Below are positions 13,324 through 47,982 of a stretch of 50,993 nucleotides of DNA, piece by piece; position 1 is the first letter of the stretch, and the number at the start of each line of letters is the position of its first letter. Where the stretch lies: contig JAGGXE010000001.1 of assembly GCA_021163225.1 (NCBI GenBank), positions 1-50,993 on the forward strand, in the 5' to 3' direction. Below the pieces are notes generated by a model. The model ran no database searches. It was not told the DNA's origin and saw only the letters and a list, made by a program, of their open reading frames with translations. This DNA comes from Candidatus Micrarchaeota archaeon. Its GTDB lineage: Archaea; Micrarchaeota; Micrarchaeia; Anstonellales; JAGGXE01. A program made the translations under genes and the position numbers.

Positions 13324-13331
13324 TTTAAATA
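13324..13331 (+). promoter_or_regulatory. TATA-box-like element upstream of tRNA-Pro
   Basis: TTTAAATA lies 27-34 nt upstream of the tRNA 5' end. Confidence 0.45.
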
Positions 13332-13357: not shown

Positions 13358-13469
13358 GGGGGAGTAGGCTAACCTGGCAGGCTGCCAGCTTTGGGAGCTG
13401 GTGATCCGAGATCCGGCAACCTACGTGTCCACGGTTTGTCGGACGGGAATTCAAATCTCGGCTCCCCCA
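13358..13469 (+). tRNA. tRNA-Pro (anticodon UGG at 13392-13394) with a 39-nt intron (13411-13449) in the T-arm, position 53/54
   Basis: Hand fold:
- Acceptor: GGGGGAG/CTCCCCC plus discriminator A.
- D arm: GGCT-AACCTGGCA-GGCT.
- Anticodon arm: CCAGC-TTTGGGA-GCTGG.
- T arm: CCGAG-[39 nt]-TTCAAAT-CTCGG. Removing 13411-13449 gives a canonical 73-nt tRNA.
- Full BHB around the junctions; see findings. Confidence 0.85.
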
Positions 13470-42801: not shown

Positions 42802-42892
42802 CGGGCCCGGAGGGATTCGAACCCTCGACCGTCAGCTTAGAAGGCTTGCGGTCTAACAGATTGCCGCTCTATCCAAGCTGAGCTACGGGCCC
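42802..42892 (-). tRNA. tRNA-Arg (anticodon UCU, 42839-42841) with a 16-nt intron (42846-42861) in the anticodon stem, position 29/30
   Basis: Minus-strand fold:
- Acceptor: GGGCCCG/CGGGCCC plus discriminator G.
- D arm: GCTC-AGCTTGGATA-GAGC.
- T arm: GAGGG-TTCGAAT-CCCTC.
- Between them are 33 nt instead of 17.
- Excising ATCTGTTAGACCGCAA leaves GCAGC-CTTCTAA-GCTGA, which is 4 bp plus a G27-A43 mismatch.
- BHB-like motif described in findings. Confidence 0.75.
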
Positions 42893-47855: not shown

Positions 47856-47982
47856 GCCCCAGTAGCTCAACGGTAGAGCGCTCGCCTCGTAGCACTTTCT
47901 TTACTGCCTTCGGCAGCAAAGAACCTGCACTAAGAAATTGCGGGAGAGCGAGAGGTTGAGGGTTCAAATCCCTCCTGGGGCT
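47856..47982 (+). tRNA. tRNA-Thr (anticodon CGU, 47888-47890) with a canonical 55-nt intron (47892-47946) at 37/38
   Basis: - Acceptor: GCCCCAG/CTGGGGC plus discriminator T.
- D arm: GCTC-AACGGTA-GAGC.
- Anticodon stem: CTCGC/GCGAG.
- Anticodon loop: CTCGTA|intron|A.
- T arm: GAGGG-TTCAAAT-CCCTC.
- Canonical BHB: H is CTCG/CGGG with bulges TAG and AGA. Confidence 0.88.

Follow-up and report, generated by a model that had tools for sequence, protein, structure and literature searches.

In ARMAN-2, a member of the Micrarchaeota, the pre-tRNA-Pro(GGG) carries two introns with strict hBHBh' motifs, at positions 53/54 and 59/60 (Fujishima et al. 2011, PMC3239211 Fig. 1C), and the tRNA-Pro(CGG) and tRNA-Pro(UGG) of the same organism have weak D arms (PMC3239211). 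A splicing endonuclease (EndA) of the epsilon2 type has been described from ARMAN-2, which cleaves in vitro a canonical intron and a 59/60 T-loop intron, the latter substrate being the experimental precedent for an epsilon2 EndA cutting outside the anticodon loop (PMC3239211). In Thermoproteales and other Crenarchaeota, where EndA is of the (alpha-beta)2 type, bulge-helix-bulge (BHB) introns are found at many positions of tRNA genes, the T-arm included (PMC3239211, PMC6379350).

The window, by which we mean the whole 50,993 nucleotide stretch of DNA analysed here, contains at 13358-13469 on the plus strand a tRNA-Pro(UGG) gene of Candidatus Micrarchaeota in which the two halves of the T-stem lie 46 nt apart. 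We hold with high confidence that this is the single functional, and most likely essential, tRNA-Pro(UGG) of the genome, most likely spliced by an epsilon2 EndA and the ligase RtcB. Exon 1 (13358-13410, plus strand, tRNA positions 1-53), supported by the Rfam tRNA model at 40.9 bits and by ARAGORN on the spliced product, is composed of the acceptor 5' strand, the D arm, the anticodon arm, the variable loop TGAT and the T-stem 5' strand CCGAG. It is followed by a 39 nt intron at position 53/54 (13411-13449, plus strand), delimited by a scan for strict 3-4-3 BHB motifs, and by exon 2 (13450-13469, plus strand, positions 54-73), which sequence reading, Rfam and ARAGORN define as the T-loop TTCAAAT, the T-stem 3' strand CTCGG, the acceptor 3' strand CTCCCCC and the discriminator A. 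The acceptor stem has seven pairs, GGGGGAG (13358-13364) with CTCCCCC (13462-13468), next to the discriminator A13469. U8 and A9 separate it from the D arm GGCU-AACCUGGCA-GGCU, whose stem has a G-U pair at either end and two Watson-Crick pairs between them, and the anticodon arm CCAGC-TTTGGGA-GCTGG presents the anticodon TGG at 13392-13394 and G37. The T-stem strands are CCGAG at 13406-13410 and CTCGG at 13457-13461, and CCA is not encoded at the gene. The spliced tRNA of 73 nt shows U8, A14, the D-loop GG, U33, G37, G53-C61, the T-loop UUCAAAU and A73. The original prediction of a tRNA-Pro(UGG) interrupted in its T-arm is thus borne out by both programs, and the coordinates it gave all agree with the sequence, as does the distance between the T-stem strands; its description of the acceptor, D and anticodon arms as perfect suits the acceptor stem with its seven pairs, but is too strong for the D stem with its two wobbles.

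Detection of the gene depends on the program and on the sequence submitted. The Rfam tRNA model scores it at 40.9 bits, above the gathering score of 29, and places a 43 nt insertion in the T-loop, with no long variable arm, which was the alternative fold that the original prediction had wished to see compared by a covariance model. A default Rfam gathering run over the whole window missed the gene, probably due to the speed filters, and it was found in the small-region and whole-genome runs only. ARAGORN reports a tRNA-Pro(tgg) if 13411-13449 is first taken out, and no tRNA at this site in the unspliced DNA, given either as the window or as a 221 nt excerpt. Upstream, sequence reading finds a TATA-like box, TTTAAATA (13324-13331, plus strand), 27-34 nt from the mature 5' end. 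TTTAAA or TTTATA boxes with comparable spacing precede most other tRNA genes of the same genome, and TTTAAATA would act as the promoter of tRNA-Pro(UGG).

The hBHBh' splicing motif spans 13402-13453 (plus strand) and was evaluated by a pair check, by energy evaluation, by a shuffle test and by covariation. The outer helix h has three pairs, UGA/UCA (13402-13404 with 13451-13453), the central helix H four, UCCG/CGGG (13405-13408 with 13444-13447), and the inner helix h' eight (13412-13419 with 13436-13443). The two bulges of 3 nt are on opposite strands, AGA at 13409-13411 on the 5' side and AAU at 13448-13450 on the 3' side. A complete motif with these pairs had been proposed from folding by hand, and each pair was confirmed. 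When the intron was shuffled 200,000 times, H arose in 2.3%, H with an h' of 3 bp or longer in 0.12%, and H with an 8 bp h' in none. The splice sites, 13410/13411 and 13449/13450, are given by the strict 3-4-3 BHB scan, for which all such motifs of the genome were spliced in silico and the products submitted to ARAGORN for a tRNA spanning the junction. Besides the 53/54 junction, the scan of the 880-kb genome recovers the intron of tRNA-Thr(CGU) (47892-47946) and some dozen further tRNA genes with interruptions, so that the rule of cleavage after the second bulge nucleotide is calibrated on the organism's own genome, and the geometry is the one common to the canonical tRNA-Thr intron, as proposed. 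Removal of exactly 13411-13449, the junction predicted at the outset, gives the only ARAGORN-valid product of the scan at this site, with the T-arm CCGAG-UUCAAAU-CUCGG and G53-C61.

Against the motif speak the shortness of the outer helix h, with its 3 bp, and the unconstrained precursor, whose minimum-energy fold (-48.0 kcal/mol) contains a register-shifted pseudo-T-arm, CGGGA/UCUCG, and differs from the BHB conformer, which has -44.3 kcal/mol when enforced; the gap is small. The 52 nt core folded without constraint shows the 3 nt 5' bulge, h' and all but one of the four H pairs. BLAST of the 39 nt intron against the whole genome returned chance matches of up to 13 nt only and, as far as sequence similarity tells, the intron is outside any repeated intron family of its own genome. 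A C/D-box guide RNA within the intron was considered and rejected by eye, the intron being too short and having neither UGAUGA nor CUGA.

EndA is encoded by a single ORF of 389 amino acids on contig C48 (G000:C48:34398-35564), in which Pfam finds two stretches of the tRNA_int_endo catalytic domain and matches to the N-domain. Residues 10-389 of the 389 align with residues 7-387 of 395 in 4fz2_A (E=2e-117), PDB 4FZ2 being the ARMAN-2 epsilon2 endonuclease, and the full-length alignment to this enzyme shows one polypeptide with three units (alphaN-alpha-betaC). The catalytic triad Y238, H253 and K284 aligns with Y236, H251 and K282 of ARMAN-2, and in the specificity loop Y163-K164 (within GTYKAEKR) aligns with Y160-K161 of the ARMAN-specific loop. 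Also conserved, in ARMAN-2 numbering, are R275 and W384, which contact the RNA, K224 of the pocket and D357 of the L10 loop; the roles of the residues are taken from published work (PMC3488258, PMC12397907, PMC3239211). The host K226 and the L10-loop Asp are both conserved, and both are needed for dimerisation of the ARMAN-2 enzyme (PMC3239211). The host EndA is of the epsilon2 type and by analogy is predicted to be a homodimer cleaving strict and relaxed BHB motifs. Which EndA architecture the genome encodes had been left as a check, and the 4FZ2 match shows it to be epsilon2, one of the four types then listed. A full-length EndA match is present in 163 of the 176 species genomes of the order, and in all 63 of those of high quality. 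The RtcB ligase is encoded on contig C24 (G000:C24; 592 bits).

The assembly comprises 880,255 bases in 63 contigs, with 44.6% G+C, and is 96.7% complete. The small subunit of RFC encoded near the tRNA gene has 63-69% identity to proteins of MAGs labelled Candidatus Micrarchaeota. In the window the genes for fibrillarin, 5S rRNA, a Nop5-like protein, a phosphoesterase and tRNA-Pro follow each other, and then come NUDIX and RFC on the opposite strand. The arrangement Nop, phosphoesterase, tRNA-Pro recurs across the order, in at least ten genomes of three other families, and we therefore take the window gene as the ancestral tRNA-Pro(UGG) locus; the RFC gene downstream of tRNA-Pro is kept in two of these relatives, G009 and G018. 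Within the 96.7% complete assembly neither Rfam nor BLAST finds a second UGG isoacceptor.

A pattern scan of metagenome contigs gave two matches, L116 and L117. L117 is from the same organism (98.9% identity over 1,248 nt). L116 has exons identical (100%) to those of the window gene and a 51 nt intron at 53/54, with the same ends as the window intron (AUCCGG... and ...CCGGACGGGAA), a different interior and an h' of 10 bp. In G018, a genome of the order that belongs to a different family, a 67 nt intron is at 53/54, with the same layout of h, H and bulges. When the three introns are aligned, 93% of cells are paired, against 26-53% in slid controls, and in seven of the eight h' pairs both partners are replaced while h, H and the bulges are kept, a covariation that comes from a set of three sequences with the structural register set by hand.

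On contig C46 (region C46:8540-8665) a tRNA-Pro 3' fragment, GAGTTCAAATCTCGGCTCCCCA, is present at C46:8595-8615. Its two flanks, a promoter-like stretch upstream and the DNA downstream (93% over 72 nt), match those of the intact L116 tRNA-Pro gene with the 53/54 intron, and the homology begins no more than 3 nt from the 3' splice site, if not exactly there. From these sequence similarities the fragment appears to be what is left of a second tRNA-Pro(UGG) locus that has decayed. A split tRNA with this fragment as its 3' half was considered and rejected, since the TAAG and AG upstream of it cannot form the H helix with UCCG of exon 1, and since the genome has an intact tRNA-Pro(UGG) gene. The fragment was also rejected as the mark of an element integrated beside the window gene, which is followed by core genes (NUDIX, RFC) in an arrangement conserved throughout the order. 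A repeat of about 85 nt with 82-85% identity was seen at C53:690-773, C19:25984-26070, C40:33369-33452 and C54:1-28, and also at L116:6-88.

Rfam identifies 37 tRNAs in the genome, and the strict-BHB scan adds five. Strict BHB introns were found at 58/59 in tRNA-Pro(GGG) (C19:16404-16504) and tRNA-Pro(CGG) (C22:1743-1843), and at 59/60 in tRNA-Gln(UUG) (C23:1578-1681), tRNA-Gln(CUG) (C58:1570-1687) and tRNA-Phe(GAA) (C45:41887-41988, minus strand), the last one completed by the scan; tRNA-Leu(UAG) on C25 has its intron in the anticodon loop. The whole-genome Rfam search missed the Pro genes of C19 and C22 and the Gln genes of C23 and C58 entirely, and gave a truncated Phe. Five other T-loop introns of the genome thus share the strict motif of the 53/54 intron, and all three proline isoacceptors, UGG, GGG and CGG, have a T-arm intron, at 53/54 once only. 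Interrupted genes amount to about 21 of the 42 detected, near the 56% reported for ARMAN-2 (PMC3239211). The window gene at 42802-42892 (minus strand) is a tRNA-Asn(gtt) according to ARAGORN, and Rfam gives its anticodon stem non-standard pairs. By eye we read it as a tRNA-Arg(UCU) with a 16 nt insert in the anticodon stem, at 28/29 or 29/30, whose motif must be relaxed because the strict-BHB scan did not recover the gene. tRNA-Leu(GAG) (C19:14640-14745) has an apparent D-loop insertion of about 21 nt, judged against the tRNA-Leu(UAG) D arm. The genome has a tRNA-Ile(UAU) (C4:18510-18634), as has been reported of the ARMAN genomes. Neither Rfam nor ARAGORN nor the BHB scan, which looks for single introns, found a tRNA-His, elongator tRNA-Met, tRNA-Leu(UAA) or tRNA-Ser(GGA); several introns, relaxed motifs or assembly gaps may explain these four.

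For the splicing of tRNA-Pro(UGG) the following course is proposed. Instead of entering the T-arm, the variable loop and T-stem 5' strand of the unspliced transcript would be paired to the intron's 3' end and the T-loop, and this would produce the strict bulge-helix-bulge with 3 nt bulges on either side of the 4 bp helix. The epsilon2 EndA would cut after the second nucleotide of each bulge, that is after 13410 and after 13449, RtcB would join the exons, ...GGUGAUCCGAG to UUCAAAUCUCGG, and the T-arm CCGAG-UUCAAAU-CUCGG could then form. We infer both the cleavage and ligation in the cell and their order relative to end processing; CCA would be added after splicing, since it is not encoded.

That the gene is instead a dead copy of tRNA-Pro, broken by the 39 nt insertion and neither spliced nor used, might be thought from its being missed by default tRNA finders, and a decayed tRNA-Pro fragment does exist in the genome, at C46:8595-8615. 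A dead gene would however be the sole UGG isoacceptor of a 96.7% complete genome, at a position conserved in the order, with all stems intact and with a strict BHB exactly at the correct boundaries. It would also have to share its motif with related genes that maintain it by compensatory changes, including the diverged relative L116, where the exons are 100% identical and the interior of the intron is different, all of which makes a dead copy very improbable. It is likewise extremely improbable, even slightly more so, that the BHB-like fold has arisen by chance and that a mechanism other than EndA removes the insert or lets it be tolerated: none of the 200,000 shuffles matches it, the motif occurs in three independent 53/54 introns differing in length and sequence, five further T-loop introns of the genome have the strict form, and a dedicated endonuclease of broad specificity is found in 63 of 63 high-quality genomes of the order.

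Granted that the gene is live, the junction could be another one, for example three bases downstream, or the extra sequence could be retained as a long extra arm. The Rfam alignment, which puts its 43 nt insertion after GAGAUC and so begins the T-loop with AUC, and the minimum-energy fold with its pseudo-T-arm CGGGA-AUUCAAA-UCUCG both lean this way. The downstream junction, on the other hand, would yield a T-loop AUCAAAU and no BHB, the H pairs failing at x=13413, y=13452, and the pseudo-T-arm has its T-loop register off by one and an extra G between T-stem and acceptor stem. UUCAAAU with G53-C61 arises from the 53/54 junction only, which is also the sole ARAGORN-valid product of the strict-BHB scan, and a long variable arm is chosen neither by the covariance model nor by ARAGORN. 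We give any such processing little more than a negligible chance and retain a tRNA-Pro(UGG) spliced at 53/54.

Searched with the spliced tRNA-Pro(UGG), 151 of the 176 species of the order gave matches, and among the matches listed most are end-to-end and uninterrupted. The interrupted genes vary in the position of their introns. tRNA-Pro(UGG) has the 67 nt intron at 53/54 in G018 and an intron at 58/59 in G009, which belongs to the same genus; tRNA-Pro introns are at 59/60 in G023 and G033, at 59/60 and 37/38 in G003, at 59/60 or 60/61 in G168, and at 37/38 in G013 and G025. The GGG isoacceptor has an intron at 59/60 in G038 and A-rich introns at 37/38 in G009 (L118, G009:C2; about 210 nt) and G018 (L119, G018:C38; 323 nt). 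The 3' exons of these two tRNA-Pro(GGG) genes, L118 and L119, are 100% identical to positions 40-73 of the window tRNA-Pro(UGG). Across the 176 related species the tRNA-Pro T-arm is therefore a recurrent intron site, and position 53/54 itself is rare, being occupied in the window genome, in one other and in one metagenome contig.

In the order tRNA-Pro(UGG) is thus found uninterrupted or with an intron at 53/54, 58/59, 59/60 (possibly 60/61) or 37/38, up to five intron positions, and wherever the flanks could be read the interrupted genes are at the same Nop-phosphoesterase locus. The 58/59 intron of G009 (L002:1559-1608) shares GCACTTTCTTT and AAAGAACCTGCACTAAGAAA, two blocks identical over 20 nt and 11 nt, with the Thr(CGU) intron of the window, and in BLAST against the genome of the window it matches this intron, which is at the canonical position (47892-47946), with E=2.8e-5. 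Such sharing of sequence suggests that related introns occupy more than one tRNA gene and more than one position. Movement of BHB introns among tRNA genes was previously proposed for Thermoproteales. The 53/54 intron could conceivably be a snapshot of active intron turnover at one orthologous tRNA-Pro(UGG) locus, a reading that we put forward tentatively and consider rather doubtful. Were it true, BHB introns would move between tRNA genes and positions in Micrarchaeota, and the 53/54 intron would be a mobile unit lately gained or exchanged and not an old fixture.

The main consequence is one of annotation. Default finders miss Pro(UGG), Pro(GGG), Pro(CGG), Gln(UUG) and Gln(CUG) and detect Phe in part, and without an intron-aware search the genome seems devoid of proline and glutamine tRNAs. 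The results fit the accepted co-evolution of endonucleases of broad specificity with disrupted tRNA genes and leave this picture unchanged. Introns at 53/54 had been described in the original prediction as rare and as known mainly from Thermoproteales-type and a few other archaea; their rarity holds over the 176 species, but the host lineage is Micrarchaeota, for which there is a precedent (PMC3239211). The find is accordingly less unusual than first thought, because a 53/54 tRNA-Pro intron is already published in Micrarchaeota: it has been known in the phylum since 2011, and what is new is a second Micrarchaeota lineage and the UGG isoacceptor.

With the ARMAN-2 tRNA-Pro(GGG) the window gene has in common the phylum, the proline family, the position 53/54, the strict hBHBh' motif and a host with an EndA of the epsilon2 type. 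It differs in being the UGG isoacceptor and in having one intron and not two, and the likeness of the introns is judged by position and motif. The GGG and CGG isoacceptors of its own genome have a single intron at 58/59, in contrast to 53/54 and 59/60 in the ARMAN-2 GGG gene. To the substrate cleaved in vitro by the ARMAN-2 epsilon2 enzyme it is alike as a T-arm intron of Micrarchaeota facing the same type of enzyme, whereas that substrate has a relaxed hBH motif, another position and another tRNA, and the window intron is strict. The strict motif shape is recognised even by endonucleases of narrow specificity. As in Crenarchaeota, the intron load co-varies with an endonuclease of broad specificity, and related introns appear in different tRNA genes; the crenarchaeal EndA is, however, a heterotetramer with a Crenarchaea-specific loop, and that of the window host is of the three-unit homodimer type with the ARMAN-specific loop.
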